22,928 nt of DNA from a virus (taxonomy: Duplodnaviria; Heunggongvirae; Uroviricota; Caudoviricetes): positions 1 through 22,928 of the IMG/VR virus record IMGVR_UViG_3300045988_024436. The stretch is one strand, 5' to 3'. The notes under the pieces were generated by a model. The model made no database searches, was not told the DNA's origin, and saw only the letters and a list, made by a program, of their open reading frames with translations. Shown here piece by piece: positions 6,884 to 22,928 of the stretch. The position numbers and the translations under genes are program-made. How positions within the stretch are numbered: the stretch's first letter is position 1; each line of letters opens with the position of its first letter.

Positions 6884-7231
6884 ATGAGAAAACAGATGCA
6901 GGCTCTTGGTCGACTCAAAACAGGCCAGATGAACAAAACAGAATCTGCGTATTGCCAGCACCTTGAGCAGCGTAAACGTGCAGGGGAAATCGCTTGGTAT
7001 CGATTCGAGGGTATCAAGCTGCGGTTAGCTGACAACACGTTCTATACGCCAGATTTCGCTGTGATGCTCGCCACCGGCGAGATGGAACTGCACGAAGTGA
7101 AAGGGGGATTCTGGACCGACGACGCCAGGGTGAAAACCAAAGTCGCCGCAGATCAGTATCCGTTCCGAATCATCGGGGTAACGGTTAAACCAAAGAAAGC
7201 TGGTGGTGGCTGGAACATCGAAGAGTTCTGA
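6884..7231 (+). CDS. putative PD-(D/E)XK nuclease (VRR-NUC-like)
   Basis: 115 aa; D...ELHEVKGG arrangement (YTPDFAVMLATGEMELHEVKGG) suggests a D-x(n)-E-x-K active site. Confidence 0.45.
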   Translation: MRKQMQALGRLKTGQMNKTESAYCQHLEQRKRAGEIAWYRFEGIKLRLADNTFYTPDFAVMLATGEMELHEVKGGFWTDDARVKTKVAADQYPFRIIGVTVKPKKAGGGWNIEEF

Positions 7232-7335
7232 ATCGACGATCTTTTTAGTTATCAATGTAATCAATAAGTTATGTGGATAAGCGAGGGTAAAGATGGAAAG
7301 TAATATCAAAAGGGTTAGTTGCCGCCGGGCATGAG

Positions 7336-7755
7336 ATGGCTTCGGAACTGAAAGCTGAATGTGGTGCCGTTGATATGCGCAGTGTGGCAAAGCTGATCAG
7401 CGATTTGGCAACGCAACTGGAAGTGCAACTGGTGCGTGCTAATGCGCTGGCGGCGGAGAATGCGGCGCTGAAACACGCAATGGCCGTAACTCTTGAGCAT
7501 GTGTCGGTCACGGATGCAGGGCAGGCTGGTGTTGCTGCAATGATTATCAACGATGCCCTATACCACAGCGAAACTCCGGTCACCGACGCTCTCCTGGCTG
7601 AAGTACGTGCGCAGGCGTTTAATGACCTTTGCTCGGTGTTCGTTAAGGACGCGACGGTTGCCGGGCTGGACGATGGCGACATCGTTACGGTGAAAGAAGC
7701 GACGGACGCCCTGCTGCATTGTGCGGAGCAGCTTCGCAAAGGAGGCAACCAGTGA
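7336..7755 (+). CDS. hypothetical protein
   Basis: 139-aa track ORF on the coding strand of the operon; weak SD; the minus-strand ORF 7269-7925 is treated as antisense. Confidence 0.4.
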   Translation: MASELKAECGAVDMRSVAKLISDLATQLEVQLVRANALAAENAALKHAMAVTLEHVSVTDAGQAGVAAMIINDALYHSETPVTDALLAEVRAQAFNDLCSVFVKDATVAGLDDGDIVTVKEATDALLHCAEQLRKGGNQ

Positions 7756-8306
7756 GCAAGATTGATTATCAAAAGCTTCGTGAAATCGCTGAAAAAACAA
7801 AAATTGCTGGTGAAGCACCTGTAATGCCTTTCGATCAGCGAATTAATGCGCTTAACGATTTTATGAAGCACTTTTCGCCAGATATCGCGCTGGCATTGTT
7901 GGATGAACGGGAAAGAAACCTGCAATACATCAAAAGCCGCGATCAGGAGAACGAGGATATTGCGCTAACGGTAGGGAAGCTGCGTGTTGAGCTGGAAGGC
8001 AAAGACAGCAAAATAGCCAATCTTACCGCCGAACGCGATGCTCTTCGTGAAGGTGAGATGGGCGACGCTAGGCATAGCAACACACGGGCCGCAGCTGATA
8101 TCTACTTCCAACTGGTCGAGGAGTGCGAAATTCCTGCTGGCGGTTCTCTGGTCGAGTACGTTGACGATATGCGCGAGAAGCTGGAAGCCGCAGAGAAGCG
8201 CATTGCAGAACTGGAAGCACGGGAAATAAAACCAGCCAAAGGTGAAGTTCTTGTCGTTGTTCTGGTTTTACTGGTTGCGGAAAAAGCGCCATCGCCGGGG
8301 AAATAG
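7752..8306 (+). CDS. coiled-coil protein, Ead/Ea22-like
   Basis: GTG at 7752 with SD AAAGGAGG 6 nt upstream, overlapping the upstream stop (GTGA); SKIDYQKLREIAEK... then heptad-rich LEAAEKRIAELEAR; hydrophobic C-terminus VLVVVLVLLVA. Confidence 0.45.
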   Translation: MSKIDYQKLREIAEKTKIAGEAPVMPFDQRINALNDFMKHFSPDIALALLDERERNLQYIKSRDQENEDIALTVGKLRVELEGKDSKIANLTAERDALREGEMGDARHSNTRAAADIYFQLVEECEIPAGGSLVEYVDDMREKLEAAEKRIAELEAREIKPAKGEVLVVVLVLLVAEKAPSPGK

Positions 8307-8314
8307 AAATCGCG

Positions 8315-8503
8315 ATGAAGGCTATTGGTGTACCGGTTAAGTGGACTAATGGCGATGCAGAAAAGCGCATGACTGGCGCTGACTGGCTGACAGCGATTGA
8401 GATGTACAAACCAACTGTGCGCATCGTGGAAGTTAATGTGCCATGCGTCGCTGGCATTTGCATCAAAGGAGACGCAGGAGAGCAAAACGATGAAAAACCG
8501 TAA
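8315..8503 (+). CDS. hypothetical small protein
   Basis: 62 aa; on the operon strand; weak SD. Confidence 0.35.
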   Translation: MKAIGVPVKWTNGDAEKRMTGADWLTAIEMYKPTVRIVEVNVPCVAGICIKGDAGEQNDEKP

Positions 8504-8678
8504 AGCAAAGATTCTGTTAGTTCGTAGAAACGCTCCTGGCGTCTGGCAGTGGGTGAGACTCAGCAACCGACGGATGGGGTTGATGAAATATTACGGGATG
8601 ATGGATTGTGGTTTTTGCAAAAAGCCCAGCGCGGCGCAAAACCGCTGGAAAAACCACTTGCGTACTAAAGGAGAGTGA
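8490..8678 (+). CDS. hypothetical small basic protein
   Basis: 62 aa from ATG at 8490 with GGAG 9 nt upstream; MKNRKAKILLVRRNAPGVWQW...; C-terminal part of track ORF 8397-8678. Confidence 0.35.
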   Translation: MKNRKAKILLVRRNAPGVWQWVRLSNRRMGLMKYYGMMDCGFCKKPSAAQNRWKNHLRTKGE

Positions 8679-8679
8679 T

Positions 8680-8889
8680 ATGGCTATCGCTGCAAGTTAC
8701 ACCATGCATCTCTATTGTGACTGCCGTCAGTGCACGGAAGGTGTATATCCAGTGCCAGACTTCGGTGAGTATATAGGTACGTCATGGGCTGGCTGTGCAA
8801 AAGAGGCGCGCAAGGATGGCTGGCGAATAAGCAAAGACAAAACGCGTGCTTTTGCGCCCGGGCATAAAGTTTTGAGGATTAACAAATGA
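8680..8889 (+). CDS. small Cys-rich protein
   Basis: 69 aa from ATG at 8680 with SD AAGGAGAG; CDCRQC cluster; contains FGEYI, shared with the 10384 gene. Confidence 0.4.
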   Translation: MAIAASYTMHLYCDCRQCTEGVYPVPDFGEYIGTSWAGCAKEARKDGWRISKDKTRAFAPGHKVLRINK

Positions 8890-9833
8890 CCACTATTACC
8901 AGAGAACAAGCTCTGAAAATTATTGAGGCAGCCGATGAGGTTATTAGTGCGCTGGCCGGAACTAACGAGGATGTTCACCCTGGTAGCGATAACATGCTAC
9001 GCCTGTGGGATGACCTGAATGACCGTTACGCGCCGCCGGAAATTGTGCGTGAACTGGCACGGATTGTGCTGGCATCGCTGGAAGCCGAGCCTGTTCTGTA
9101 TCAGTCCTGCACTCGCCCCACCTGGAATAGCGGTGTTCCGTGGACGGAATGGAAAGAACGAAGTCGTGAGTGCTACGAAGACGATTTGCGCTTTACAGAC
9201 ACGCCTGACCATGCCGGTTGGATATACAAATGTCGAAAACTATATACCACTCCGCCAGCGCCGATAGCGTTAGAGGCCATTGAAAACGCAATTGAATACA
9301 TCCGCAGTATCGCTTTTCACATCGATGAAGACGATTACCACGGCAAACATATTGCGTATTTCATGCAGCAAGCATTGGCCTGGCTGGAAGGGCATTCATG
9401 CAGCGACGACAGACTGGGTAAAGCCGAGAATCAACCAGTACGCGGCAACCAGGCTGCCGAATCCAATCGCGATAATGAGTGGACTGGCAATCCTGATATT
9501 GATAACGCCATCATCATGCTCGACCGCATAGATACGCTGGAAAATTGCGATGATGACCGTATTGAGGCTGTTAAGGCTGTTTTGCGTAGACTGGCTGGCA
9601 ACTATCCGGTAATTCCGGATGGTTGGATAAGCTGTAGTGAGCGAATGCCTGAGAACATTCCCGGAAGTTGTAAAGAGTATCTGGTGTTTGATGGGCTTAA
9701 TAATAAAGTTCATCACGATTACTGGGTTGTCCCTGATGGAGACAGTGCGCCAGTTGCGTCGTTCTGGAATCATTACGGGGCACATGTAACTCACTGGATG
9801 CCTCTACCGGAACCGCCGCAGGAGGTTAATTGA
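8886..9833 (+). CDS. DUF551-like phage protein
   Basis: 315 aa; C-terminal GWISCSERMPE...VTHWMPLPEPPQ resembles the DUF551 signature as recalled; SD GAGGA before the ATG. Confidence 0.55.
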   Translation: MTTITREQALKIIEAADEVISALAGTNEDVHPGSDNMLRLWDDLNDRYAPPEIVRELARIVLASLEAEPVLYQSCTRPTWNSGVPWTEWKERSRECYEDDLRFTDTPDHAGWIYKCRKLYTTPPAPIALEAIENAIEYIRSIAFHIDEDDYHGKHIAYFMQQALAWLEGHSCSDDRLGKAENQPVRGNQAAESNRDNEWTGNPDIDNAIIMLDRIDTLENCDDDRIEAVKAVLRRLAGNYPVIPDGWISCSERMPENIPGSCKEYLVFDGLNNKVHHDYWVVPDGDSAPVASFWNHYGAHVTHWMPLPEPPQEVN

Positions 9834-10117
9834 TGGTCTCCTTCGCGAAATATACGATTATTGACTGGATAGCATTCATTCAGGTTTTGCTCATCTGGTT
9901 TTATATGGCTTACAGGAGTGGACAGTGGATTGTCAGTGTAGCCTGTAGCAATGGATGGCGTTGGTGGAACCGAAAGAATAAAAAAGCGCTGGCCTTGGCT
10001 TCGTTTTACGAAGCATTCAATCTTAACAGTCTTCAGCCTGGTTCTGTCGTTGTAGTCACCACTCAAAGCGGCATGACGATACAAATTCACAAGCCAAAGG
10101 AGGAAGGTCGTGGCTAA
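9833..10117 (+). CDS. small membrane protein
   Basis: ATG at 9833 overlapping the upstream TGA; SD AGGAGG 7 nt upstream; hydrophobic N-terminal segment IIDWIAFIQVLLIWFYMAY. Confidence 0.4.
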   Translation: MVSFAKYTIIDWIAFIQVLLIWFYMAYRSGQWIVSVACSNGWRWWNRKNKKALALASFYEAFNLNSLQPGSVVVVTTQSGMTIQIHKPKEEGRG

Positions 10118-10391
10118 CCTGCAACTTGCCGTTAAAGGTGAATACTTCGATGCCATGATTCGCGGAGAGAAAACGGAAGAGTATCGCCTGTGTAATGACT
10201 ACTGGAATAAGCGAATTATGTTCCGCGAGTATGACCGCCTGATTATCACAAAGGGATATCCGAAGCGCGACGATTCCAGCCGCAGAATTGACGTCCCGTA
10301 TGACGGATATGAAATCAAGACAATCACACATCCGCACTTCGGCGATAAACCGGTAAAGGTGTTCGCTATAAAGGTGAATATTGATGGCTAA
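10110..10391 (+). CDS. ASCH-like domain protein
   Basis: GTG start with SD AAGGAGGAAGG; EYFDAMIRGEKTEEYRL fits the ASCH G-x-K-T-x-E-x-R motif. Confidence 0.45.
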   Translation: MANLQLAVKGEYFDAMIRGEKTEEYRLCNDYWNKRIMFREYDRLIITKGYPKRDDSSRRIDVPYDGYEIKTITHPHFGDKPVKVFAIKVNIDG

Positions 10392-10722
10392 ATCAGCAGC
10401 AGAGCGCAAAGCCGCTCAGAGAGCCAGACAAGCTGCATCTGGTGTGCGTAAGCTGGAAATTGTGCTTGATGCTCAGGAAATTGAAATGCTGGAGCGTAAC
10501 TGTGCCACGCGTCGCCCCGGGCGTGCGCCTTACGAATTTGGTGAGTATATAGCGTTACTGATCCGCCAGGATGATGCACGCGTGCACGGGCGTATAAAAT
10601 CGATCAGCAGAAAACGTTGCGGTAAGTGCGGCGAGAGAGTTCCTGTGAATTCATGCCCGTGTGATGGTGACTCGCAATGCTGGGTGACTAAAGGCTGGCA
10701 TGAAACGAAATTAATAGTGTGA
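10384..10722 (+). CDS. Cys-rich protein, possible zinc-finger regulator immediately upstream of the late operon
   Basis: ATG at 10384 with SD AAGGTG; C-terminal CGKCGERVPVNSCPCDGDSQC; stop TGA overlaps the palindrome GTGACATGTCAC. Confidence 0.4.
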   Translation: MAKSAAERKAAQRARQAASGVRKLEIVLDAQEIEMLERNCATRRPGRAPYEFGEYIALLIRQDDARVHGRIKSISRKRCGKCGERVPVNSCPCDGDSQCWVTKGWHETKLIV

Positions 10723-10771
10723 CATGTCACGAGTAGATTATGCATGATGAATTTGATGGGGTTTGAATACT

Positions 10772-10841: not shown

Positions 10842-11296
10842 TGATGCCTGCTGAACCTAAAGCCTATAAACGCAAATCAACGCAATTTAAGCCACTAACA
10901 GCAATGCAGGAGGCTTATTGCCAGTCATACATCAAAACGCCTGAAAACCAGACTCAGGCAGCGATTAACGCAGGATTCTCCCCAAATACAGCGGCAGTTA
11001 AAGCCAGTGTCATGATGCGCGATGAACGCATTCAAAAACGGATTGCCGAGTTGATGGAGGAGCGCAACAAACGAATGCGCGTCAGTGCTGATTACGTTCT
11101 CATGCGCTTGGTGGAGATCGACCAGATGGACGTGATCGACATCCTCAACGACGATGGTAGCCTTAAGCCAATCCGAGAGTGGCCGAAAATCTGGCGCACT
11201 ACGCTTAGCGGCTTTGATCTGTCATCGACCATCATGAACATGAACGAGGATTCGATAGAGACAATCATCAAAAAATTAAATGGCCTGACAAGGTGA
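10841..11296 (+). CDS. terminase small subunit, probably C-terminally truncated by a frame change
   Basis: Track ORF starts at 10763 but its first 26 codons are the terminator and operator DNA, so ATG at 10841 or 10844 is preferred. A protein-like frame ([20 protein letters not shown]...[10 protein letters not shown]) continues from 11290 to a TGA at 11431-11433 that overlaps the GTG of the large subunit. Confidence 0.55.
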
Positions 11297-11429
11297 AGAA
11301 CCTCGAACTGATTGGTAAGCACGTCGACGTCAACGCATTCAAAGAACGCCTGGATGTTAATGTGAATGTGACAATTGCTGATCGCATAGCGGCAGCCAGG
11401 AAGAGACTGAAGAACGTCAGTGGCAATCA

Positions 11430-12908
11430 GTGACAGATACAGCGTTATCTCCTGAAGAGCAGTTAATCGAGATATTGCAGGGTTCACTCACGATCCGCTT
11501 GGCTATGCCCTCTATGGGTTCCCCGTGGGGGGGAAGGAGGGTACTGAACTGGCGACATGCCACCGGTCCACGTCAGTGGCAGGCCGATGCGTTCCGAGAG
11601 ATACGTGATCACCTGCAGAATCCAGAGACGCGATATCAGCCGCTTATGCTGGCACGTGCTTCTGGTCACGGTATTGGTAAATCCGCATTCATCTCAATGC
11701 TGATCAACTGGGGCATGTCCACTTGCGAGGATTGTAAGGTCGTGGTGACCGCCAACACCGACAACCAGCTACGAACGAAGACCTGGCCGGAAATTATCAA
11801 GTGGTCAAACCTTGCTATCACGAAAGACTGGTTTACCTGTACCGCTACCGCGATGTACAGCAATGACCCTGGGCACGACAAGCGGTGGCGAGCTGACGCA
11901 ATCCCCTGGTCTGAGCACAACACTGAGGCATTCGCCGGACTACACAACGAGCGTAAACGCATCATCGTGGTATTTGATGAAGCGTCGAACATTGCGGATC
12001 TGGTGTGGGAAGTTGCCGAGGGTGCGCTAACGGACGAAGACACTGAGATTATCTGGGTGGCTTTCGGAAACCCTACACGTAACACCGGGCGTTTCCGTGA
12101 ATGTTTCCGCAAATACAAACACCGCTGGAAAACTGCGCAGATTGACAGCAGGACGGTGGAAGGCACCAACAAACAGCAGTTGCAGAAATGGGTTGATGAC
12201 TACGGGGAAGATAGCGACTTCGTTAAAATCCGTGTGCGTGGCATATTCCCTGATGCATCTGAATTGCAGTTTATCCCTACCGGTCTTACTGACGAGGCAA
12301 TGAAACGGGTGGTAACTGCTGCGCAGGTGGCACATGCTCCGGTGATAATCGGCGTTGACCCGGCATACTCCGGCGTTGATGACGCTGTGATATACCTGCG
12401 GCAGGGGCTACACAGTAAGGTGCTGTGGACTGGCAACAAGACTACCGACGATCTGATTATGGCGAAGCGTATCGCTGACTTTGAAGACCAGTATCAGGCT
12501 GACGCGGTGTTCATCGACTTCGGTTACGGAACCGGTTTGAAGTCAATCGGTGACGGCTGGGGTCGTACATGGCAACTTGTTCCGTTCGGTGGCGCGTCTA
12601 CTGACCAGCAGATGCTCAACAAGCGTGGGGAGATGTTCAACTCATGCAAGACATGGCTGAGGCTGGGCGGCATGCTTGATGACCAGGAAACAGCGGACGA
12701 CCTGTCGGCGGCAGAGTACAAAGTTCGAGTGGACGGTAAAATCGTTATCGAACCGAAGGAAGATATCAAGGAGCGGCTTGGGCGTTCTCCTGGTAAAGGC
12801 GATGCGCTACTGCTGACGTTTGCGTTCCCGGTGTCAAAGCGCCTGCGAATTCCCGGGCAGCAGAACCAGCAAGGCAAGGCCATTACAGATTACGATCCCT
12901 ATGCTTAA
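11430..12908 (+). CDS. terminase large subunit
   Basis: 492 aa; ATPase-like N-terminal half and nuclease-like C-terminal half ([11 protein letters not shown]...DAV); GTG start overlaps the upstream stop. Confidence 0.8.
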
Positions 12909-12958
12909 TCCGTTAGCGGGGATAATGACGGAGATATCCTCTGGTGAGGATAAAACAA

Positions 12959-12978
12959 AGCCAGCTCATCGGCTGGCT
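12959..12978. terminator. hairpin terminator after terminase, stronger on the minus strand
   Basis: AGCCAGC-TCATCG-GCTGGCT; T-rich on the minus side (TTTGTTTTAT) and TGTTTGT on the plus side. Confidence 0.5.
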
Positions 12979-13184
12979 GTTTGTGACATGTCACGGTGTT
13001 AGAAGGTTATTTTATCGAATGCGGCGTTGATTGCCTTGGCGTCCTGCTCAGCACCAACCACATCAAGTAAAGATCTTTTACTAAGCACTTCAGCCAGGCA
13101 TTGTAACTTCATTGTTGTATAAGGTTTTTCGCGCATTGTAATTCATCATCACTTTTTTCTTTGGCGTATACAGCGCGAGAAATA

Positions 13185-13427
13185 TCAAACTACATTGCCT
13201 TTTTCCATTTCAGTTTTCTGCGCTGAAATCCAGTCATGGCAAGTAACTCCTATTCCATGGTCATCGCTAAGCGTTAACCCGGCAAGTCGCTCACCTGGAA
13301 TTGCTTCACAAAGCATTTCATTTCCTGCAAAAACACCATAAAAAATTGAGTCATCACCCTGAACAATGCGTACATATTTGCACGGCCATTCATTTAGATA
13401 TTTAGCTAGCATGTCGGCTGTTTTCAT
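13185..13427 (-). CDS. hypothetical 80-aa protein in minus-strand insert between terminase and head genes
   Basis: ATG at 13425-13427 with SD AAGGTGAG; opposite strand to the flanking late genes; lies between two minus-strand terminators. Confidence 0.4.
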   Translation of the reverse strand: MKTADMLAKYLNEWPCKYVRIVQGDDSIFYGVFAGNEMLCEAIPGERLAGLTLSDDHGIGVTCHDWISAQKTEMEKGNVV

Positions 13428-13436
13428 GATCTCACC

Positions 13437-13459
13437 TTAAAAAAATGCCCGGCGAACCG
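13437..13459 (-). terminator. rho-independent terminator (minus strand) immediately upstream of the 80-aa ORF
   Basis: Minus strand reads GCCCGG-TTCG-CCGGGC then A TTTTTTT, ending 2 nt before the SD. Confidence 0.6.
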
Positions 13460-13496
13460 GGCGAACTGGAAGCAATGAGTTATGCCTTCCGTGGCT

Positions 13497-13512
13497 GTAC
13501 TGGTTTACAGCA
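13497..13512. promoter_or_regulatory. LexA-box-like palindrome CTGTA-N6-TACAG
   Basis: CTGTACTGGTTTACAG fits the CTGT-N8-ACAG SOS-box core with CTGTA/TACAG arms; centre less AT-rich than canonical boxes. Confidence 0.3.
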
Positions 13513-13540
13513 TGAAGCCATCGCAATGGCGCCCTGCTGT

Positions 13541-13582
13541 AAAAAGGGCGGTGATAGTCCTTCAAGGGAAACCATCACCGCC
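13541..13582 (-). terminator. terminator-like hairpin downstream of the tRNA (minus strand)
   Basis: 9-bp stem GGCGGTGAT/ATCACCGCC (13547-13582), 18-nt loop, followed on the minus strand by CTTTTTAC. Confidence 0.45.
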
Positions 13583-13626
13583 AAGCCCCTGGAACTTCTG
13601 GCATCACGGTCCTTAGGCGTGATTCT

Positions 13627-13702
13627 GGCGTGGCATGCAGGATTCGAACCTGCGACCAACCGCTTAGAAGGCGGTTGCTCTGTCCAGCTGAGCTAATGCC
13701 AC
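13627..13702 (-). tRNA. tRNA-Arg (anticodon UCU)
   Basis: Reverse complement GTGGCATTAGCTCAGCTGGACAGAGCAACCGCCTTCTAAGCGGTTGGTCGCAGGTTCGAATCCTGCATGCCACGCCA folds as a cloverleaf: 7-bp acceptor stem, anticodon loop CTTCTAA, T-loop TTCGAAT, encoded CCA. Close to E. coli argU as recalled. Confidence 0.9.
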
Positions 13703-14129
13703 AACGCTGAGAGCACTTAGCCTGTTAAGGCGCCACACTTTGTCGCGGCTCCATAAATGCTCTCATCGTTGTACCCTCGTCTCTTCCGAGGCGTCACACC
13801 GAATCGCCGGGATGGTGAATCCCCGTGCGCGGAATAAAACCGCTCGACTTGCACATTCCGGCTACCTGGTTCGTTTGCCCGAGCAAGGGAGGGTGCCCCT
13901 TAAACGTATCCAGACCGCTATCGGCGCATGTGCCATACGCCGTACTGCTCAAAATAAAAGCTCACTCCACCTGTTCAATTTAACGACAAGCCAGTCAGGT
14001 TAGTAACCGGAATGAACTCTTTGGTTACCTGAAAGGTAATAATTTGTGCGTTAAATGTCAACTGCCTACGATAAATAAATCATATGTGGTTAAATTGGTA
14101 ATAATTTAATTGCGTACGGAGTCATTGAT

Positions 14130-14336
14130 ATGTGCATGGGTAGCTCACCATCAGTGCCTGCAACACCAGAAGTTCAGGCAGCACCACAGGAGCAGGATGC
14201 CGCCGTTGTTGATGCCCGCGACGAAGAAACTCGTCGCCGTCGCGCTGCTGCTGGTCGTAGTTCTACGCTGCTTACCGGTTCTCAGGGCGACACATCAACC
14301 GCTAATACCAGCGGTAAAACGCTGCTTGGTCAGTAA
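14130..14336 (+). CDS. hypothetical small protein at the start of the morphogenesis operon
   Basis: 68 aa; GGAG 8 nt before the ATG; preferred over the overlapping 14110 ORF because of the SD and because its stop sits just before the next gene. Confidence 0.4.
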   Translation: MCMGSSPSVPATPEVQAAPQEQDAAVVDARDEETRRRRAAAGRSSTLLTGSQGDTSTANTSGKTLLGQ

Positions 14337-14350
14337 CCGGAGTCATTGAA

Positions 14351-16028
14351 ATGGCGGAAACAACTAAAGAGCGATTGAACAAACAGTTCGCACAACTTGA
14401 AAGCGAGCGTCAGTCGTTCGAGCCGCACTGGCGCGAGTTGAGTGATTACATCAACCCGCGTGGTTCCCGCTTTCTGACTTCTGAGGTTAACCGTAACGAT
14501 CGACGCAATACACGCATTATTGATTCGACCGGGACTATGGCGGCGCGCACTCTCGCCAGCGGCATGATGTCAGGCATCACAGCCCCGCGCGTCCGTGGTT
14601 TCGCCTGGCTAGCCAGATCCTGAAATGATGGATTATGGCCCTGTTAAGTTGTGGCTTGAGGCGGTGCAGAACCGCATGAACGATATGTTCAATAAGTCGA
14701 ATCTCTATCAGTCGCTGCCGCAGTTATACGGAAGCCTCGGCACATACAGCACTGGTGCAATGGCAGTGCTGGAGGATGACGAGGACATCATTCGCACAAT
14801 GCCATTCCCGATAGGCAGTTACTACCTGGCTAACTCACCTCGTGGCAGTGTGGACACCTGTTTTCGCAAGTTCTCTATGACTGTTCGTCAGCTTGTTCAG
14901 GAGTTCGGGCTAAATAACGTCAGCGAATCCGTAAAAAGCATGTGGGAAAGCGGAACCTACGAGAAGTGGATTGAAGTGATGCATTCGGTTTACCCGAACA
15001 TTGACCGCGATACATCGAAGCTGGATAGCAAGAACAAGCCATTCAAATCGGTTTATTACGAGGTTGGTGGCGATAACGACAAGTTGTTGCGTGAGTCCGG
15101 ATTCGATGAGTTTCCAATTATGGCTCCGCGCTGGGAAGTTAACGGCGAAGATGTTTATGGATCATCATGCCCGGGTATGCTGGCGCTTGGACCTGTTAAG
15201 GCATTGCAGCTTCTCCAGAAGCGCAAGTCGCAGTTGATTGATAAAGCCACCAATCCGCCGATGGTTGCTCCGACTTCCCTCAAGAATCAGCGTGCCTCCC
15301 TTCTTCCTGGCGACATCACGTATATCGATCAGATTACTGGTCAGGATGGTTTCAGGCCTGCTTATCTGGTTAACCCCAGTACAGCAGATTTGGTGGCAGA
15401 CATTCAGGACACCCGTCAAATCATTAACAGCGCCTACTTTGTCGATCTGTTCATGATGTTGCAGAACATCAATACCCGCTCGATGCCTGTTGAAGCGGTG
15501 ATCGAAATGAAAGAAGAAAAACTTCTGATGTTGGGGCCGGTTCTGGAGCGTCTGAACGACGAATGTCTTAATCCTCTCATTGACCGCGCTTTCTCGATGA
15601 TGGTGCGTAAAAACATGCTGCCGCCACCGCCTGACGCGATGGAAGGTATGCCCCTGAAGGTCGAATACATTTCCGTCATGGCTCAGGCGCAGAAGTCTAT
15701 CGGCCTGTCCAGTCTGGCGTCTACGGTCAACTTCATTGGTCAACTTGCGCAAGCGAAACCAGAAGCTCTCGACAAACTCAACGTTGATCAGGCGATCGAT
15801 GCATTCGCTGATATGTCCGGAGTGTCTCCAACCGTCATTGTTCCGCAGGAACAGGTTGAGCAGGCTCGCCAGCAACGGGCACAGCAACAACAGCAGCAAC
15901 AAATGATGGCGATGGGGATGGCGGCGGCACAGGGTGCCAAGACGCTAAGCGAAGCTAAAACTTCGGATCCGAGTGTTTTGTCAGCTATGGCGAATGCAGT
16001 TAGTGGTCAGGGTGGGCAATCACAATGA
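14351..16028 (+). pseudogene. portal (head-to-tail connector) protein, apparently split by two nearby frame changes (or sequencing errors)
   Basis: ORFs 14351-14623 (90 aa) and 14625-16028 (467 aa) are in different frames. The third frame across the junction encodes SPARPWFRLA (14581-14610), which resembles the P-x3-W-x-RL stretch of T7 gp8; a C4 run lies at 14583-14586. Poly-Q near the C-terminus. Confidence 0.65.
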
Positions 16029-16321
16029 CAGATTACGAAGACGATCAACTGAAAGAAGAAAACGCCCGTAAGCAACGTGACATGGCACAGCGTGAAATTG
16101 ATGACATTTGCTTTGTCATGAGCAGTGAACAGGGGCGTCGCGTTGTCTGGTCGGTGCTGGAGAAAGGCCGTGTGTTTTCCGCTATCTCACCGATGGACGC
16201 TATGGCAATGGCATTTAATGAGGGGCAACGCAATCTGGCGCTGGAACTGTTTCAGCGCGTTATGGCGCATTGCCCTGAACAGTATTTGAAGATGGCCAAA
16301 GAGGCCAGTGAACAGGAGTGA
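16025..16321 (+). CDS. hypothetical head-assembly protein
   Basis: 98 aa; ATG overlaps the portal stop (ATGA). Confidence 0.45.
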   Translation: MTDYEDDQLKEENARKQRDMAQREIDDICFVMSSEQGRRVVWSVLEKGRVFSAISPMDAMAMAFNEGQRNLALELFQRVMAHCPEQYLKMAKEASEQE

Positions 16322-16323
16322 TC

Positions 16324-17019
16324 ATGAATTTATTTGAGCGTTTGCTGTATCGCCGTCTTTGCAATGAGCAACCAGTCGATGGTGGAGCAGCTCCGGCTGC
16401 GTCAGAACCGTCAGCGCCTGCAGGTGATAACCCTGCTCCAGTTGGTGATCCATCACAACAGGAAGGTGATAAGCCACAACCTGTTGCTGATGGCGATAAA
16501 CCTGCTGATGACAAAAAGCCTGAAAACGATAAGCATGATGAAAAAAAGGACGGCGATAAACCAGAGGGTGCGCCTGAAAAGTACGAGTTTCAGGCTGCCG
16601 AAGGCGTAGAGCTGGATACAGAAGCGTTGAAGGAATTCGAGCCGGTGGCGCGAGAACTAAACCTGACCAACGAGCAAGCGCAAAAGCTGGTTGATGCTTA
16701 TCCGAAGATTCTGGCAGGTGTTCAGCAGCGCCAGGCAGAAGCCTGGCAGAAAACAACCGAGCAGTGGGCTGCGGATGTAAAAGCCGACAAAGAAATCGGT
16801 GGCGACAAGTTGATTTCTAACCTTAGCGCCGCACAGCGTGCGCTTGACCAGTTCGGGACACCTGAACTCAAAGAATATCTGAACACCACCGGGCTGGGTA
16901 ATCACCCTGATCTGGTCAAAACGTTCGTGAAAATCGGAAAGGCGATGTCTGAAGATGGCATGGTCACCGGTGGTAATGAAGGCCAGCGTAGTGCGGCCGA
17001 AGTGCTCTATGGCAAATAA
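16324..17019 (+). CDS. scaffolding protein
   Basis: Acidic, low-complexity N-terminal half with GDKP-type repeats and a helical C-terminal half; lies between portal and capsid; SD ACAGGAG before the ATG at 16324. Confidence 0.55.
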   Translation: MNLFERLLYRRLCNEQPVDGGAAPAASEPSAPAGDNPAPVGDPSQQEGDKPQPVADGDKPADDKKPENDKHDEKKDGDKPEGAPEKYEFQAAEGVELDTEALKEFEPVARELNLTNEQAQKLVDAYPKILAGVQQRQAEAWQKTTEQWAADVKADKEIGGDKLISNLSAAQRALDQFGTPELKEYLNTTGLGNHPDLVKTFVKIGKAMSEDGMVTGGNEGQRSAAEVLYGK

Positions 17020-17033
17020 GAGAGGAAATGACA

Positions 17034-18020
17034 ATGGCTGTTAAAGGCTTAACTGCGCTAACGCTGGCTGACTGGGGTAAGCGCGTCGATCCAAACGGGA
17101 AAGTCGATAAGATTATCGAGCTTCTCGGTCAAACTAACCCGATCCTTCAGGATATGCCTTTTGTCGAAGGGAACCTCCCTACCGGACACCGAACCACCAT
17201 TCGTTCTGGTTTACCTTCAGCTACCTGGCGTTTGCTGAACTATGGCGTACAGCCAAGCAAATCAACCACAGTGCAGGTAACCGATTCCGTTGGCATGCTG
17301 GAAACCTATGCGGAAGTCGATAAGTCACTGGCTGATCTGAACGGCAATACCGCCGAATTCCGCCTTTCTGAAGACCGCGCATTTATTGAAGCGATGAATC
17401 AGCAGATGGCGCAGACGCTGTTTTATGGTGATTCCAGCGTTAATCCTCAGCAGTTTATGGGACTGTCCTCCCGCTATTCCAGCCTGTCTGCGGGTAATGC
17501 TCAGAACATCATTGATGCTGGTGGCACGGGTACAGATAACACCTCAATCTGGTTAGTGGTGTGGGGCGAAAACACCGTGCATGGCATCTTCCCGAAAGGG
17601 CAGAAGGCTGGCATCCAGATGGAAGATAAAGGCCAGGTGACACTGGAAGATGCTAATGGCGGCAAGTACGAAGGCTATCGCACCCATTACAAATGGGATA
17701 ACGGACTTGCTCTGCGTGACTGGCGTTATGTTGTTCGCATTGCAAACATCGATGTCAGCAATCTTTCAGAACCATCCTCTGCCGCAAATATTGCGAAGTT
17801 GATGGTTAAAGCACTACATCGCATTCCAAACCGTGGCATGGGCCGCCCGGTGTTCTACATGAACCGCACTGTAGGCCAGGCTCTTGATCTGCAGTCTCTG
17901 GAGAAAACATCTCTGGCTATCAGCGTAAAAGAGACAGAAGGCGAGTGGTGGACTTCATTCCGTGGTGTACCAATCCGTGAAACTGATGCGCTTCTGGAAA
18001 CAGAAGCCCGCGTGGTGTAA
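17034..18020 (+). CDS. major capsid protein
   Basis: About 328 aa; follows the scaffold gene; SD GAGAGGA 7 nt before the ATG at 17034; a hairpin follows the gene. Confidence 0.65.
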   Translation: MAVKGLTALTLADWGKRVDPNGKVDKIIELLGQTNPILQDMPFVEGNLPTGHRTTIRSGLPSATWRLLNYGVQPSKSTTVQVTDSVGMLETYAEVDKSLADLNGNTAEFRLSEDRAFIEAMNQQMAQTLFYGDSSVNPQQFMGLSSRYSSLSAGNAQNIIDAGGTGTDNTSIWLVVWGENTVHGIFPKGQKAGIQMEDKGQVTLEDANGGKYEGYRTHYKWDNGLALRDWRYVVRIANIDVSNLSEPSSAANIAKLMVKALHRIPNRGMGRPVFYMNRTVGQALDLQSLEKTSLAISVKETEGEWWTSFRGVPIRETDALLETEARVV

Positions 18021-18036
18021 CGCCTGTTATTAACCT

Positions 18037-18056
18037 GTGGGTCGTAACAGACCCAC
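18037..18056 (+). other. stem-loop after the capsid gene (possible processing site or attenuator)
   Basis: GTGGGTC-GTAACA-GACCCAC; no T-tract follows. Confidence 0.3.
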
Positions 18057-18071
18057 TAATGGAGAAAGAAG

Positions 18072-18509
18072 ATGATCACCGACAAACTGTTGATGTTCTC
18101 CGAAGCTCAGGCGGTTACGAATACCGCGGCTTCTACTGACGTAATCGATCTCGGCCCAATTGACGGAAAACGTCGTGATATCGGCGTGGGTTACCCACTT
18201 GAGTTTTGGGCGCTGGTTAACACAGCCGCCGCGGCAAGCGGTGATGCAACTGTAAACATCCAGTTGCAGACGAGTGAGAATAACAGCTCATGGACCACTA
18301 TTTATGATAGTGGCGCACTGGCAAAGACCGCCCTGACAGCAGGTAAACGAGTTGTTTCTGCAAAGGTGCCTGCCGGTGTTCAGCGATATCTGCGTGTTAA
18401 CTACTCCGTCGCAACTGGCCCACTAACGGCTGGCAAATTCACTGCGGGTATCAGTCTGGATGTTGATGCCAATACGCCGTACCCGATCCGCTCAAAAGTA
18501 ACTGGTTAA
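18072..18509 (+). CDS. hypothetical virion protein (possible capsid decoration or head-tail protein)
   Basis: 145 aa; SD GGAGAAAG; Thr/Ala/Gly-rich. Confidence 0.4.
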   Translation: MITDKLLMFSEAQAVTNTAASTDVIDLGPIDGKRRDIGVGYPLEFWALVNTAAAASGDATVNIQLQTSENNSSWTTIYDSGALAKTALTAGKRVVSAKVPAGVQRYLRVNYSVATGPLTAGKFTAGISLDVDANTPYPIRSKVTG

Positions 18510-18519
18510 GGTGATATCG

Positions 18520-18855
18520 ATGTCAGGTGAGAAACCAAGATACCGCGTTCTGCGCCTCTCTCATATCCATAACACTCTGTGGCCGGAGGGGGCAGAAATC
18601 GAATACGAAGGTGAGCCTGGTAGCGCACTGGAACCTGTTAACGATGCAGCCAGACAGGCAAAAGCAAAAGTTGCAGGAAAGGTGTCAATGGCAGCAACCA
18701 GCACCAAAATCATCAACGATGTGTCAGATGATGGTGAACTGGATAAGCTCCGTGAAGAGTACGAATTGCTCTTTAACGAGAAGCCACACCATAACGCTAA
18801 AGCCGAAACGCTACGCGAGAAGATCGCAGATAAGCGTAAAGAACTGGGCGTGTAA
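18520..18855 (+). CDS. hypothetical virion-associated protein
   Basis: ATG at 18520 with SD AAGGTG 6 nt upstream; followed by a strong terminator. Confidence 0.4.
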   Translation: MSGEKPRYRVLRLSHIHNTLWPEGAEIEYEGEPGSALEPVNDAARQAKAKVAGKVSMAATSTKIINDVSDDGELDKLREEYELLFNEKPHHNAKAETLREKIADKRKELGV

Positions 18856-18871
18856 GCCTCGCGAATCAGAC

Positions 18872-18893
18872 AAGGGGCTTCGGCCCCTTTATT
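18872..18893 (+). terminator. rho-independent terminator
   Basis: AAGGGGC-TTCG-GCCCCTT followed by TATT. Confidence 0.6.
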
Positions 18894-18911
18894 GCAGGAG
18901 TATAGAAACTT

Positions 18912-19517
18912 ATGGCCTCTGTAGTAGAGATCTGCAATCGTGCGCTGTCCAATATTGGCAACAGCCGCAGCATTAACAGCCTGACGGAAGCCAGCAAGGA
19001 AGCGGGGGAATGTTCGCTGCACTTTGAGGCCTGCCGTGATGCTGTGCTTTCTGATTTTGACTGGAACTTTGCTACCAAACGCGTGGCGCTTGCAGATACG
19101 AGCAATCCACCGCCTGACTGGGAATATGCGTACCAGTACCCGTCAGATTGTCTGCGCATTACTGAAATTATGCTTCCTGGTGTACGCAATCCAACAGCAG
19201 CAATGCGCGTTCAGTACGAAGTTGGTGCAGACACCAACGGAACAGGAAAGTTGATCTACACAGACCAGCCGCAGGCATGGCTCAAGTATGTCTCTCGCGT
19301 TTCAGATGTGAACATGTTTGATGCCATTTTTATGGAGGCGTTGGCCTGGCGTCTTGCGGCAGCTATTAACATGGCGCTGACTGGGAATGCAGACCTCGGT
19401 ACGTTTGCCCTCAATATGTACAATCGCGTGATTCTTAGTGCTGGCTCGCATAGCCAGAATGAATCACAGGAACCACTGCCACCGGTTGACGAGTTTACCA
19501 TTGCGAGGTTGTCCTGA
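18912..19517 (+). CDS. tail tubular protein A (T7 gp11-like)
   Basis: 201 aa; N-terminus ICNRALSNIGNSRSINSLTEASKEAG follows the pattern of the recalled T7 gp11 N-terminus; size and position before a roughly 800-aa protein fit. Confidence 0.55.
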   Translation: MASVVEICNRALSNIGNSRSINSLTEASKEAGECSLHFEACRDAVLSDFDWNFATKRVALADTSNPPPDWEYAYQYPSDCLRITEIMLPGVRNPTAAMRVQYEVGADTNGTGKLIYTDQPQAWLKYVSRVSDVNMFDAIFMEALAWRLAAAINMALTGNADLGTFALNMYNRVILSAGSHSQNESQEPLPPVDEFTIARLS

Positions 19518-21988
19518 TGGCTATCAGTTGGATCCAGCCCAGCTTTGCCGGTGGTGAGATTGGACCGTCGTTGTACGGTCGTATTGACATGGCGAAGTAC
19601 CAGGTGGCATTGCGCAAGTGCGATAACTTTATCGTGCGGCAGTATGGCGGAGTTGAGAATCGACCTGGTACGCGTTTTGTCGGTGCCGCCAAATACCCAA
19701 ATCGGAAATGCCGCCTGATCCCGTTCCAGTTCTCGACGGTTCAGACTTATGCTCTGGAGTTTGGACACCAGTACATGCGCGTTATCAAAGATGGTGCGTT
19801 GGTGCTGAACAGCAGCAATGTTATTTATGAAATTGCCACGCCATATACTGAAGCCGATCTGTTCCGAATTAAATTCACGCAAAGCGCAGACGTGCTTACG
19901 CTGGTTCATCCGGCATACCCGCCGAAAGAGTTGCGCCGCTATGCGCATGACAACTGGCAACTGGTTGATGTGGTAACGAAGAACGGGCCATTTGAAGATA
20001 TCAATATTGACGAGTCAGTGACGGTTTATGCCAGCGCCAGCACCGGGACAATTACGCTAACGGCAAGCGCCTCTATTTTTGGCGCGGAGCAGGTAGGAAA
20101 ATTGTTCTATCTGGAACAGCCTGCAGTGGATTCTGTGCCGGTATGGGAAACCAGTAAGAGTACGTCGATTGGCGATATTCGCCGTGCAGACAGTAACTAC
20201 TATCGCGCCGTTACAGCAGGCAAAACAGGTACTTTGCGCCCTTCGCATACAGAAGGCACATCATGGGATGGCTGGGGCGGATCCGGTGATGATGATACTG
20301 GCATTGAGTGGGAATATCTGCACAGTGGTTTTGGCATTGCCCGTATCACTGCTGCAAATGGAACTACTGCAACTGCCGAGGTGATTTCCTATATCCCTTC
20401 GCAGGTCGTGGGCGAGGATAATGCCAGCTATAAATGGGCTAAATATGCCTGGAACAGTGTTAATGGTTATCCTGGCACTGTTGTTTATTATCAACAACGT
20501 CTTTACTTCGCCGCATCGACTGCGTTTCCTCAGACTATCTGGGCCAGCCGTACCGGGGATTATAAGGATTTTGGCAAAAGCAATCCTACGCAGGATGACG
20601 ACAGAATTATCTACACCTATGCCGGACGTCAGGTTAATGAGATCCGCCACCTGATTGATGTTGGTTCTCTGGTGGCGCTGACTTCCGGAGGTGAGTACGT
20701 CATCACCGGCGACCAGAACAAAGTGTTAACCCCATCATCATTTGCATTCAGCTCTCAGGGATCAAATGGCTCAAGCAACGTCCCGCCAATTGCCGTGGCG
20801 AATATTGCTCTGTTCGTCCAGGAGAAAGGCAGCGTTGTCCGTGATCTGGCCTACTCATTCGATGTTGACGGCTATCAGGGGAACGACCTGACCATCCTTG
20901 CCAATCATCTTTTTCAGAAGCACAGCATTGTTGACTGGTGCTTCTCTATTGTCCCTTACTCCAGCGCCTTCTGCATTCGTGATGACGGTAAATTACTGGT
21001 GATGACCTATTTGCGTGATCAACAGGTTTTTGCATGGGCACCACAGTCCAGTACCGGAAAATATGAAAGCACATGCAGTATCAGCGAAGGCAATGAAGAT
21101 GCGGTGTATTTCGTCATTAACCGAACCGTTAACGGGCAAACAGTGAGATACATCGAGCGACTGTCCAGCCGTTTATTTACCAGCGATGAAGATGCTTTCT
21201 TTGTTGATTCTGGCCTTAGCTATGATGGAAGAAATACGTCTGACAGAACGATGACCATCACTGGTGGTTCTGGTGAATGGGATTACCGTGCGGAATATAC
21301 AATCAGTGTTTCTGGTGGTGCGTACTTCACCAGTAGTGATGTCGGCGCGCAACTACAGTTCCCTTATACCGGAACTGATCCTGATACTGGCGATGAAGTG
21401 TCAAAAGAATTACGTTGCGACATTATTTCTGTAACCAGCAATACCGCTGTAGTGGTTCGTGCTAACAGGAACGTCCCGCCATCCCTCAGGAATGTGGCCA
21501 CCACGAACTGGCAGATGGCGCGCCGGACATTTGGAGGCCTGTCTCATCTTGAAGGCCAGACCGTAAACATTCTCTCTGATGCGAACGTGGAACCACAGAA
21601 AGTGGTTTCCGGAGGTGCCGTCACGCTGGAATCTCCGGGGGCTGTAGTGCACATCGGCCTGCCAATAACTGCTGAATTCGAAACACTGGATATCAACATT
21701 AACGGACAGGAAACGCTGCTGGACAAAAAACAGGTGATCCCCTCCGTTACTCTGGTTGTGAATGCCAGTCGCGGCATCTGGGCGACTACGCCCGGCGGTA
21801 AATGGTACGAATATCCACAGCGTGAATTCGAGTTCTACGATGATCCTGTTGATGATGCTACCGGAAAAGTAGAAGTGAAACTGGACAGTAACTGGGGCAA
21901 AAACGGACGTGTAAAAATCCGTCAGCTTGATCCGTTGCCGCTGTCTGTTCTTGCCGTTATTCCTCGCCTTACTGTTGGGGGATTCTGA
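19517..21988 (+). CDS. tail tubular protein B (T7 gp12-like)
   Basis: 823 aa; start overlaps the upstream stop; size and gene order match podovirus tubular protein B; sequence match to recalled T7 gp12 is weak. Confidence 0.55.
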   Translation: MAISWIQPSFAGGEIGPSLYGRIDMAKYQVALRKCDNFIVRQYGGVENRPGTRFVGAAKYPNRKCRLIPFQFSTVQTYALEFGHQYMRVIKDGALVLNSSNVIYEIATPYTEADLFRIKFTQSADVLTLVHPAYPPKELRRYAHDNWQLVDVVTKNGPFEDINIDESVTVYASASTGTITLTASASIFGAEQVGKLFYLEQPAVDSVPVWETSKSTSIGDIRRADSNYYRAVTAGKTGTLRPSHTEGTSWDGWGGSGDDDTGIEWEYLHSGFGIARITAANGTTATAEVISYIPSQVVGEDNASYKWAKYAWNSVNGYPGTVVYYQQRLYFAASTAFPQTIWASRTGDYKDFGKSNPTQDDDRIIYTYAGRQVNEIRHLIDVGSLVALTSGGEYVITGDQNKVLTPSSFAFSSQGSNGSSNVPPIAVANIALFVQEKGSVVRDLAYSFDVDGYQGNDLTILANHLFQKHSIVDWCFSIVPYSSAFCIRDDGKLLVMTYLRDQQVFAWAPQSSTGKYESTCSISEGNEDAVYFVINRTVNGQTVRYIERLSSRLFTSDEDAFFVDSGLSYDGRNTSDRTMTITGGSGEWDYRAEYTISVSGGAYFTSSDVGAQLQFPYTGTDPDTGDEVSKELRCDIISVTSNTAVVVRANRNVPPSLRNVATTNWQMARRTFGGLSHLEGQTVNILSDANVEPQKVVSGGAVTLESPGAVVHIGLPITAEFETLDININGQETLLDKKQVIPSVTLVVNASRGIWATTPGGKWYEYPQREFEFYDDPVDDATGKVEVKLDSNWGKNGRVKIRQLDPLPLSVLAVIPRLTVGGF

Positions 21989-22452
21989 TGATCGATGTTC
22001 AAATTATTCCCGCAACCGAAGAGCATCTTCAGATGATTTTGCCGGATGTTCGTCAGGCTGATATTGACGAACTGTATGCGGTATCACTGATGACTACCGA
22101 AGATGCGCTGCGTGTTGGTCTGCGTACTGCGACTATGGCCTGGTCAGGATTTGCGAACGGAGAACTGGTAACCATGTTTGGCGTATCTCCGGCGTCAATG
22201 ATCGGTGGCAATGGTACGCCCTGGCTGGTCGGAACCAGCCGTATCGAAAAATATCAGAAGACATTTCTTCGCCACTGCCGCCCTGTATTGCAGCAGATGC
22301 TGGCAGTTTATCCGCGCCTGGAAAACTATGTCGACGAGCGAAACCATGTTGCCAAAGCATGGCTGCACTGGCTTGGATTCAGGCTTGAAGAAGCCGCGCC
22401 TTATGGTGCTCTTGGTCTTAATTTCCACAGATTTCACATGGAGAGAAAATAA
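21988..22452 (+). CDS. putative internal virion protein (gp13 position)
   Basis: 154 aa; start overlaps the upstream stop (ATGA); assigned by position only. Confidence 0.4.
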   Translation: MIDVQIIPATEEHLQMILPDVRQADIDELYAVSLMTTEDALRVGLRTATMAWSGFANGELVTMFGVSPASMIGGNGTPWLVGTSRIEKYQKTFLRHCRPVLQQMLAVYPRLENYVDERNHVAKAWLHWLGFRLEEAAPYGALGLNFHRFHMERK

Positions 22453-22928
22453 TGTGCGATCCGGTTATTGCTGGTGGCGCAATGCTCGCCATGAGTGGCA
22501 TTCAGGCATACACCCAGTACCAACAGGGAAAGTATGCCTCGAAGGTTGCAGAAGCGAACGCAGATATAGCCACAGCTCAGGCAAATGATGCAATAAACAG
22601 AGGTAACGCTGAAGCTGAGCAACGGCGCAGAGAGACCCGACAGCGGCTTGGTACACAGGCGGCGACAATGGGGGCTACCGGCGCTGATTTATCTACAGGT
22701 AACGCGCTGGATATATTTGGCGACACTGCCCAGTTTGGCGCTCTTGATTCTCTGACGACGGTGAATAACGCGCAACGCGAGGCTTACGGTTATCAGGTTC
22801 AGGCTGCCAACTATAAAGCAGAAGCCAGTTCAGCCCGTAAACAGGGGAATGTGGGAGCAGCAACAACATTGCTCACTGCGCCTCTGAAGGCATACGGTGC
22901 GTACCAGATGTTTGGTGGGACGTGGAGT
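22452..22928 (+). CDS. putative internal virion or injection protein, N-terminal fragment (runs off window)
   Basis: ATG at 22452 overlapping the upstream TAA; the frame stays open for 159 codons to the window end (MCDPVIAGGAMLAMSGIQAYTQYQQGKYASKVAEANADIATAQ...); absent from the track because there is no in-window stop. Confidence 0.4.
   Translation, partial: MCDPVIAGGAMLAMSGIQAYTQYQQGKYASKVAEANADIATAQANDAINRGNAEAEQRRRETRQRLGTQAATMGATGADLSTGNALDIFGDTAQFGALDSLTTVNNAQREAYGYQVQAANYKAEASSARKQGNVGAATTLLTAPLKAYGAYQMFGGTWS

Follow-up and report, generated by a model that had tools for sequence, protein, structure and literature searches.

The 22,928-nucleotide stretch at positions 1 to 22,928 of the IMG/VR record IMGVR_UViG_3300045988_024436 (the whole of it is called the window below) can be divided into a left half with early, immunity, replication and accessory genes, and a right half that encodes a short-tailed virion. 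The preliminary description of this DNA, made from its letters alone, had proposed that a lambdoid-style half for early functions, immunity and replication is joined to a podovirus module of T7 architecture, and matches to protein families, PDB entries and folds bear this out. The late operon would run from the small (TerS) and large (TerL) terminase subunits through a variable slot with a tRNA-Arg gene to the portal, scaffold-like protein, capsid, cement, adaptor, nozzle and the first core proteins. Its virion genes are numbered here after phage epsilon15:

14351-16028, plus strand: portal protein of the T7 gp8 family, in two pieces, 14351-14623 and 14625-16028 (PF12236; PDB 8CK0)
16025-16321, plus strand: Bbp19-like small protein, homolog of epsilon15 gp5 (PF25181, E value 7e-17)
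16318-17019, plus strand: homolog of epsilon15 gp6, with a probable start ATG at 16324 and the C-terminus ...GQRSAAEVLYGK (phrog_458)
17028-18020, plus strand: major capsid protein (MCP) of the epsilon15 gp7/BPP-1 Bbp17 family, with an HK97-like fold (PF20911 GP7, E value 2e-149)
18072-18509, plus strand: Bbp16-family capsid cement protein, homolog of epsilon15 gp8 (PF21190, E value 3e-47; named after its homolog in the Prokaryotic Genome Annotation Pipeline, PGAP)
18511-18855, plus strand: homolog of epsilon15 gp9 (phrog_590; 40% identical to epsilon15 gp9 and 100% to TL-2011b gp31)
18912-19517, plus strand: tail adaptor or gatekeeper of 201 residues (tubular tail protein A), homolog of epsilon15 gp11 (PDB 8CK1_E)
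19517-21988, plus strand: tail nozzle of 823 residues (tubular tail protein B), homolog of epsilon15 gp12 (PDB 8CK1_A)
21988-22452, plus strand: internal virion protein (IVP), IVP-A-like (phrog_308 'internal virion protein')
22452-22928, plus strand: IVP-B of the T7 gp14 family, cut by the end of the window (phrog_418; PF24072 T7_gp14)

The open reading frames (ORFs) of the 201- and 823-residue proteins, previously described as tubular proteins A and B, are present in the ORF map, and both proteins belong to a podovirus tail. The 823-residue protein matches the 'Tail Nozzle' chain 8CK1_A over its full length with an E value of 6e-218. The nozzle alignment comprised 27 sequences taken from a search of 1.84 billion representative proteins; 18,302 clusters had matches with E ≤ 0.001. 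The AlphaFold2 model of the nozzle has a predicted local distance difference test (pLDDT) score of 88.9 and a predicted template modelling score of 0.84, and was compared with the PDB using the program Foldseek. The fold resembles that of the Carin-1 tail (8CK1; E value 1e-85, template modelling (TM) score 0.89), Legionella phage LME-1 (9EFK; 1e-41, 0.65), T7 gp12 (7EY9, 9JYZ, 6R21, 8E4G and 7BOY; 1e-20 to 1e-24, 0.51-0.55) and P22 gp10 (8EAP; 5e-8, 0.31), where the assignments of 8CK1 to Carin-1 and of 9EFK to LME-1 follow the fold-search descriptions. Other T7-type nozzles, from Kp7, Kp9, P-SCSP1u, A4, HRP29 and PhiM1, fall into the range of T7 gp12. By sequence alone, the nozzle reaches only 8CK1, 9EFK and the 'nozzle gp13' of 23sh; T7 gp12, to which it is approximately 12% identical, was not reached by HMMER with the 27-sequence profile and is connected by fold comparison only. 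The homology of the nozzle has been published (PMC4819975).

The adaptor matches the 'Connector Protein' 8CK1_E with an E value of 1.5e-26 and 9EFK_T with an E value of 4e-5, and is assigned to phrog_394 and phrog_9239, 'tail tubular protein'. A putative direct connection with T7 gp11 comes from two sources: the RefSeq note on epsilon15 gp11, which records an HHpred match to T7 gp11, and PMC4819975. It is exceedingly improbable that the 201- and 823-residue proteins are tail components of a siphovirus or myovirus. No support for such an assignment was found, whereas both proteins have full-length matches in 8CK1, whose podovirus nozzle and connector have been solved. The specific fold matches are to podovirus nozzles only (Carin-1, LME-1, T7, Kp7, Kp9, P-SCSP1u, PhiM1 and P22 gp10), with generic beta-propeller proteins ranking below them, and no tape-measure, sheath or tube genes were found in the window by the ORF map and PHROG search. 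Downstream of the nozzle, the internal virion proteins that had been expected are supported by phrog_308, phrog_418 and Pfam T7_gp14, which the last ORF matches with an E value of 1.7e-6 (28.5 bits, cutoff 27), in agreement with the syntenic assignment of IVP-A and IVP-B in epsilon15 by Hardies et al. (PMC4819975).

The T7-type portal of the preliminary description is correct as to family, but is not a single ORF, being split by two 1-base deletions. The family PF12236 (T7 gp8-type head-tail connector) matches both pieces, with E values of 2.9e-149 and 2.4e-24, and the match to the portal 8CK0 has an E value of 3e-144. A capsid gene is also present as described, but its product belongs to the epsilon15/BPP-1 family and not to that of T7 gp10. 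It matches the NCBIfam equivalog NF045672 (MCP_gp7_epsi_15) with 413 bits against a cutoff of 75, and the structures 3J4U (BPP-1), 8CJZ and 3J40 (epsilon15 gp7) with E values of 1e-128, 1e-87 and 2e-85, respectively. By analogy with the structures of T7, epsilon15 and Carin-1, the portal dodecamer would carry the adaptor ring and the hexameric nozzle. The tailspikes, encoded outside the window, would attach to the adaptor-nozzle assembly, and the internal proteins would, after ejection, build a channel that spans the cell envelope.

The module shares with T7 the portal family PF12236, the nozzle fold, an internal protein of the T7_gp14 family, and the order of adaptor, nozzle and internal proteins. 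It differs in that its capsid protein is of another sequence family, its TerS and TerL are of another type, the phage is temperate, and no T7-like RNA or DNA polymerase was seen in the window. The module is also unrelated to the siphovirus tails of lambda or HK97. Among solved structures, BPP-1 provides the best relatives for the capsid protein (3J4U) and the Bbp16 cement protein (PF21190), and Carin-1 provides those for the portal (8CK0), adaptor and nozzle (8CK1; 45% identity for the nozzle). However, both phages have different hosts and different non-structural genes, and there is no relatedness to the window at the nucleotide level.

The phages to which the window is closely related were identified by a megablast search of the whole window against 50,697 phage records. 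The Escherichia phages HEMP4, vB_EcoP_ZX5, TL-2011b, PAS61 and phiv142-3 are 97-99% identical to the window in nucleotide sequence across 73-80% of its length, and phiV10 is 98% identical across 51%. Enterobacter phage Tyrion is approximately 82% identical, and Salmonella phage epsilon15 approximately 77%, in the late genes only. ZX5, phiV10 and epsilon15 are assigned to the genus Uetakevirus in the GenBank/RefSeq taxonomy. The genus rule of the International Committee on Taxonomy of Viruses is roughly 70% similarity over the genome. The product of coverage and identity, calculated for the window only, is approximately 76% for ZX5, 78% for HEMP4 and 75% for TL-2011b. A protein-by-protein comparison showed that the order of epsilon15 gp1-gp14 is fully kept, with the sole exception of gp10, which is absent. 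The late proteins are 94-100% identical to their counterparts in TL-2011b, and the window has the same gene order throughout as TL-2011b, phiV10, vB_EcoP_ZX5, HEMP4, PAS61 and phiv142-3. The phiV10-type isolates also have the methyltransferase, the repressor with its Cro partner, and both replication genes, the DnaT-like one and P. Epsilon15, the type member whose virion has been studied by cryo-electron microscopy, is a temperate podovirus like the phage type of the window, and its TerL (90% amino-acid identity), portal (approximately 80%), adaptor (84%) and nozzle (88%) are similar to those of the window; its immunity and early genes differ, and it has a 111-residue gp10.

Prophages of the same type are widespread in Escherichia coli. 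In approximately 100 of 5426 complete E. coli genomes, a chromosomal prophage covers 80% or more of the window, the closest with 91% coverage at 98.5% identity, and the portal sequence of the window is present in approximately 510 of the 5426 (approximately 9%, or about one in eleven). The window itself was found in none of the collections searched. In the best-matching strain, avian pathogenic E. coli (APEC) E16002, the prophage adjoins guaA, which is also the integration site of ZX5 (PMC9782041). In electron micrographs, ZX5 is a podovirus whose head measures 60 nm and whose tail measures 15 nm (PMC9782041), and the related phage EC.W1-9 is likewise a podovirus, its head measuring 60 nm and its tail being very short.

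Therefore, the window very probably constitutes approximately 57% of a phage genome of the phiV10/TL-2011b type within Uetakevirus, the epsilon15-like temperate podoviruses of Enterobacterales. Several points weigh against this placement. At least 20% of the window (1337-3264, 7463-10384 and 13001-13427) has no match in the closest isolates, although most of that part does match E. coli prophages. Only 22.9 kb are seen, with the integrase, attP, tailspike, lysis genes and remaining core proteins outside, and whole-genome genus criteria are inapplicable to a slice of this size. If the frame-breaking indels described below prove genuine, the window comes from a defective prophage and not from a working phage. 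The alternative, in which the window represents a new, unnamed temperate group formed by the recent junction of a lambdoid left arm and a T7-like right arm, is very improbable. It would be in keeping with the exchange of early accessory genes with lambdoid phages and with the late-module relatives in distant hosts (Cobetia phage Carin-1, Bordetella phage BPP-1 and Legionella phage LME-1). However, the same arms occur in the same order at 97-99% identity in several isolated phages and hundreds of E. coli prophages, and the genus has been named since the genomes of epsilon15 and phiV10 were described. The combination of early and late genes is the standard architecture of a named, long-studied genus and was already known; it is not new because the two arms are joined identically in all relatives, published phages and hundreds of prophages among them. 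The preliminary description had called it less common than the siphovirus arrangement and had not placed it in a named group; yet the portal is frequent in E. coli genomes, and the window belongs squarely to Uetakevirus. The window is a further copy of a common phage type that should be listed under Uetakevirus and need not be marked as unusual.

Mosaicism is also apparent inside the virion module. Amino-acid identity to epsilon15 gp1-gp14 is mostly 63-90%. The capsid sub-module at 17028-18855, which includes the MCP (43% identical to gp7), the Bbp16-like cement protein and the gp9-like protein, is 36-43% identical to that of epsilon15, whereas on either side of it the identity rises to 80-88% for the portal, adaptor and nozzle. 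Because the identity of MCP, gp8 and gp9 is so much lower than elsewhere, the sub-module is, as judged from the encoded sequences, a divergent, BPP-1-like allele within the genus.

The left half of the window contains the following features:

2-634, minus strand: MT-A70 adenine DNA methyltransferase, 3' end cut by the start of the window (PF05063, E value 2.4e-22)
627-926, minus strand: PerC-family activator (PF06069)
1036-1284, minus strand: AlpA-type helix-turn-helix (HTH) regulator (PF05930)
1334-2361, minus strand: RecT single-strand annealing protein, in three frames (Pfam RecT profile; homolog in the APEC prophage)
2371-3270, minus strand: YqaJ-type (lambda Exo-like) recombination exonuclease (PF09588, E value 2.8e-23)
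3877-4461, minus strand: HTH repressor (HTH_3; its homolog is called a repressor in ZX5)
4616-4846, plus strand: Cro-like protein of 76 residues, divergent from the repressor (Cro/C1-type HTH; phrog_35)
5170-6018, plus strand: DnaT-domain initiator (PF17948, E value 1.6e-18)
5990-6766, plus strand: lambda P-type helicase loader (PF06992, E value 5e-56)
6884-10722, plus strand: nin/ea-type accessory region with DUF1064, Ead/Ea22, DUF551, DUF4752, phrog_625 and a phrog_536 regulator (Pfam, PHROG)

A leftward early operon would thus contain the methyltransferase, PerC, AlpA, RecT and the YqaJ exonuclease, and would be followed by the repressor/Cro switch. A rightward operon would contain the DnaT-like initiator, the lambda P-type helicase loader and a swappable ea/nin accessory block. 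The methyltransferase is colinear with those of ZX5 and TL-2011b, and the switch at 3877-4846 belongs to phrog_8 and phrog_35, transcription regulation. The recombination module, repressor and Cro protein that had been recognised earlier were all found. The O/P-like replication genes proved correct for the lambda P homolog, but the initiator is DnaT-like and matched no lambda O-type family in the family search, which also detected no S24 peptidase domain in the repressor. The left half resembles the early region of a lambdoid phage in how it works, without having an O/P module of the strict lambda kind. It shares with the lambdoid phages (lambda, Stx-converting phages and P22) the divergent repressor/Cro switch, the lambda P homolog, the RecT/Exo-type pair, and ea/nin accessory genes with up to 99% nucleotide identity. 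It differs from them in the initiator, in the repressor, and in that relatives of the window carry an antirepressor. Segment 7720-10384 is 89-99% identical in nucleotide sequence to Stx1- and Stx2-converting lambdoid phages and to the P22-like Salmonella phages SE21 and Bp96115, and is not common to TL-2011b, ZX5 or HEMP4. The window is genuinely mosaic with respect to the lambdoid gene pool, and ongoing exchange is confined mainly to this accessory block. In comparison with the phiV10-type isolates, the window has another RecT/YqaJ allele (1337-3264) and another ea/nin block (7463-10384), for both of which E. coli prophages or lambdoid phages have matching sequences. It also lacks the gp10-family gene, as does EC.W1-9, and carries 23 private indels that break several genes.

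The indels are of 1-3 bases and private to the window in comparison with all relatives analysed. In addition to RecT and the portal, they affect three features in or next to the terminase genes:

10844-11296, plus strand: small terminase subunit, 150 of 197 residues (phrog_51; TL-2011b alignment and translation)
11430-12908, plus strand: large terminase subunit, ORF kept (phrog_2; 90% amino-acid identity to epsilon15 gp2)
13185-13427, minus strand: truncated gene with five private insertions (phrog_4846)

The recT gene contains five private 1-base insertions, at 1679, 1701, 1800, 1828 and 1846, which distribute it over three frames. Of the 198 positions of the Pfam RecT profile, the 181-residue RecT ORF matches 2-98 only, and the intact 340-residue RecT of the APEC prophage aligns over all three ORFs. 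A 1-base deletion at 11276 cuts TerS at residue 150 of 197, with further deletions at 11412 and 11421. In TerL, the indels at 11472, 11524, 11535 and 11554 have a net effect of +3 and garble residues 15-42, which is compatible with either sequence error or decay. The portal ORF is split by 1-base deletions at 14582 and 14612; with the two bases restored, it encodes 559 residues, and 558 of 560 alignment columns are identical to the TL-2011b portal. A programmed frameshift in the portal was rejected, as the portal is one uninterrupted ORF in all relatives, epsilon15 among them, and the window differs from these by two separate 1-base deletions that lie 30 nucleotides apart. As written, and judged by its broken portal, TerS and RecT frames, the record would be unable to make particles.

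Local sequence error is the likelier explanation of these breaks, because they are private, tightly clustered and run-length indels. They form six patches (1679-1846, 3539-3549, 7103-7308, 11276-11554, 13113-13191 and 14582-14612), and 15 of the 22 gaps between indels are no longer than 120 nucleotides, a degree of clustering reached in none of 20,000 random placements. The indels occur in none of 41 related loci, save for one natural variant at 13445. The portal deletions are found in none of 510 E. coli genomes, and an exact 48-mer spanning both of them has no match in IMG/VR or in the GTDB representative genomes. It is possible, but less probable, that the sequence is accurate and the window is a decaying, non-inducible prophage remnant, in which real frameshifts inactivated the portal, TerS and RecT. 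At least six genes carry frame-disrupting indels, most of the indels are changes in run length, such as replication slippage also makes, and some decay is expected among prophages of a type so widespread in E. coli chromosomes. However, not one of the 23 indels recurs in any other genome searched. They are packed into tight patches, with five in 170 nucleotides in recT, five in 80 nucleotides at 13113-13191 and seven in 280 nucleotides at the TerS/TerL junction. The patches are otherwise approximately 99% identical to intact relatives, so that indels locally outnumber substitutions, and the spread-out mutations, larger deletions or insertion sequence elements expected from decay were not seen. 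Users of the record should check the read-level quality before calling the prophage defective.

The absence of the gp10-family gene is of a different nature. In relatives, including epsilon15, phiV10, TL-2011b and ZX5, the adaptor gene is immediately preceded by a 324-bp gene encoding a 111-residue protein (Pfam Gp10-like; 'capsid staple protein' in PGAP). In the window, its place is taken by one feature:

18856-18911, plus strand: intergenic hairpin and deletion scar (ATAGAAACTT) in place of the gp10-family gene (comparison with TL-2011b)

The scar consists of 10 bases that follow the upstream hairpin, and a tblastn search did not find gp10 anywhere in the window. The identical gp10-less junction recurs in numerous chromosomes of E. 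coli, 35 contigs of IMG/VR and the isolated phage EC.W1-9, the complete genome of which contains no gp10 detectable by tblastn and which still forms plaques and podovirus particles. The gene was found in approximately 433 E. coli genomes, compared to approximately 515 with the flanking junction region, which leaves roughly 16% without it. The absence of gp10 is thus a natural variant shared with EC.W1-9 and approximately 16% of related E. coli prophages.

We set aside the possibility that the loss of gp10 equals the loss of the capsid staple. An AlphaFold-based re-analysis by Hryc and Baker (PMC9207676) argued that the 'gp10 staple' density of epsilon15 is really a 130-residue protein. This is the length of epsilon15 gp8, the Bbp16-like protein, of which the window retains an intact homolog. 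On this reading, the missing gene probably does not encode the staple, and the label 'capsid staple protein' for the 111-residue gp10 family is doubtful. The gp10-less loci retain intact cement and gp9-like genes. Separately, the preprint on EC.W1-9 describes the phage as being without an integrase and safe for therapy, whereas its GenBank entry PP445227.1 annotates an integrase (34301-35551 region), a repressor and the complete set of temperate genes known from Uetakevirus.

The gp6 homolog is located between the portal and capsid genes and most likely is the scaffolding protein, as judged from its gene position, composition, predicted helices and C-terminal peptide. Its first approximately 85 residues are rich in Pro, Ala, Asp and Lys and disordered, and the remainder is predicted to be helical; the AlphaFold2 model is of low confidence (pLDDT 46). 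The preliminary description had named this ORF a scaffold, and these properties favour that reading, if short of proof. Databases label the protein a protease or peptidase, and the sole support from phrog_458 is a label as protease. Searches of Pfam, NCBIfam and the PDB yielded no match for the protein, whether to a protease or to a scaffold. No profile, family or structure directly supports the protease label, which appears doubtful for the whole gp6 family.

The conserved peptide at the C-terminus of the gp6 homolog is encoded by positions 16981-17016. The terminus ...GQRSAAEVLYGK resembles that of the gp10 family, which is ...KSAAETLYGNGGE in TL-2011b, and epsilon15 gp6 and gp10 end in a similar way, in ...LISAFYPKK and ...LKDAFYPDGEDD, respectively. 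The closest example of such a pair is ...GGQRSAADILYGNKE and ...APQRSAADTLYGDAGGE. The two families are otherwise unrelated and have in common only this peptide of approximately 10 residues. A six-frame scan of genomes and loci, including two essentially complete genomes, found the peptide within the C-terminal 18 residues of only gp6- and gp10-family proteins. The peptide switches with the type of capsid protein: ...SAFYP... accompanies the epsilon15-type and ...QRSAA(D/E)xLYG... the phiV10/BPP-1-type protein in 83 loci (approximately 25 distinct sequence pairs) and in 20 loci from other genera. The covariation has two states only and therefore reflects few independent events. Distant gp6 homologs from Desulfovibrio, Cloacibacillus and Nitrospinaceae, with no detectable gp10, keep a C-terminus of a hydrophobic residue, Tyr, and Gly or Pro.

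Tentatively, the last approximately 10 residues of gp6 may act as a capsid-docking peptide that has been copied by the 111-residue gp10-family protein, and both tails might then dock at one site of the capsid protein. In combination with the proposed assignment of the staple density to gp8, the gp10 protein would be a dispensable mimic of the scaffold that reaches the same site as cargo or as an accessory protein. If true, scaffold mimicry would explain the viability of the gp10-less lineage of the window and EC.W1-9, and the peptide pair provides a testable lead on the recruitment of proteins to epsilon15/BPP-1-type capsids.

The remaining features lie between TerL and the portal:

12909-14129, both strands: variable slot in the late operon (ARAGORN, Rfam, PHROGs)
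13445-13696, plus strand: ORF of a hypothetical protein, doubtful, overlapping the tRNA-Arg(TCT)
13626-13702, minus strand: tRNA-Arg(TCT), on the strand opposite to the late operon (ARAGORN and Rfam)
14130-14336, plus strand: homolog of epsilon15 gp3, 68 residues (phrog_831; 88% identical to epsilon15 gp3 and 100% to TL-2011b gp25)

The tRNA is the only structured RNA found by the Rfam scan, and a scan of 12800-19000 for promoters and terminators found none above the expectation from shuffled sequences. The APEC prophage has an annotated tRNA-Arg in the corresponding position. With the whole window as the query, 64 Synechococcus phage records match, and these drop out of the organisms listed when only 1-10760 is used; the match must therefore come from the right-hand part of the window. 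Our guess is that these matches are caused by the tRNA.

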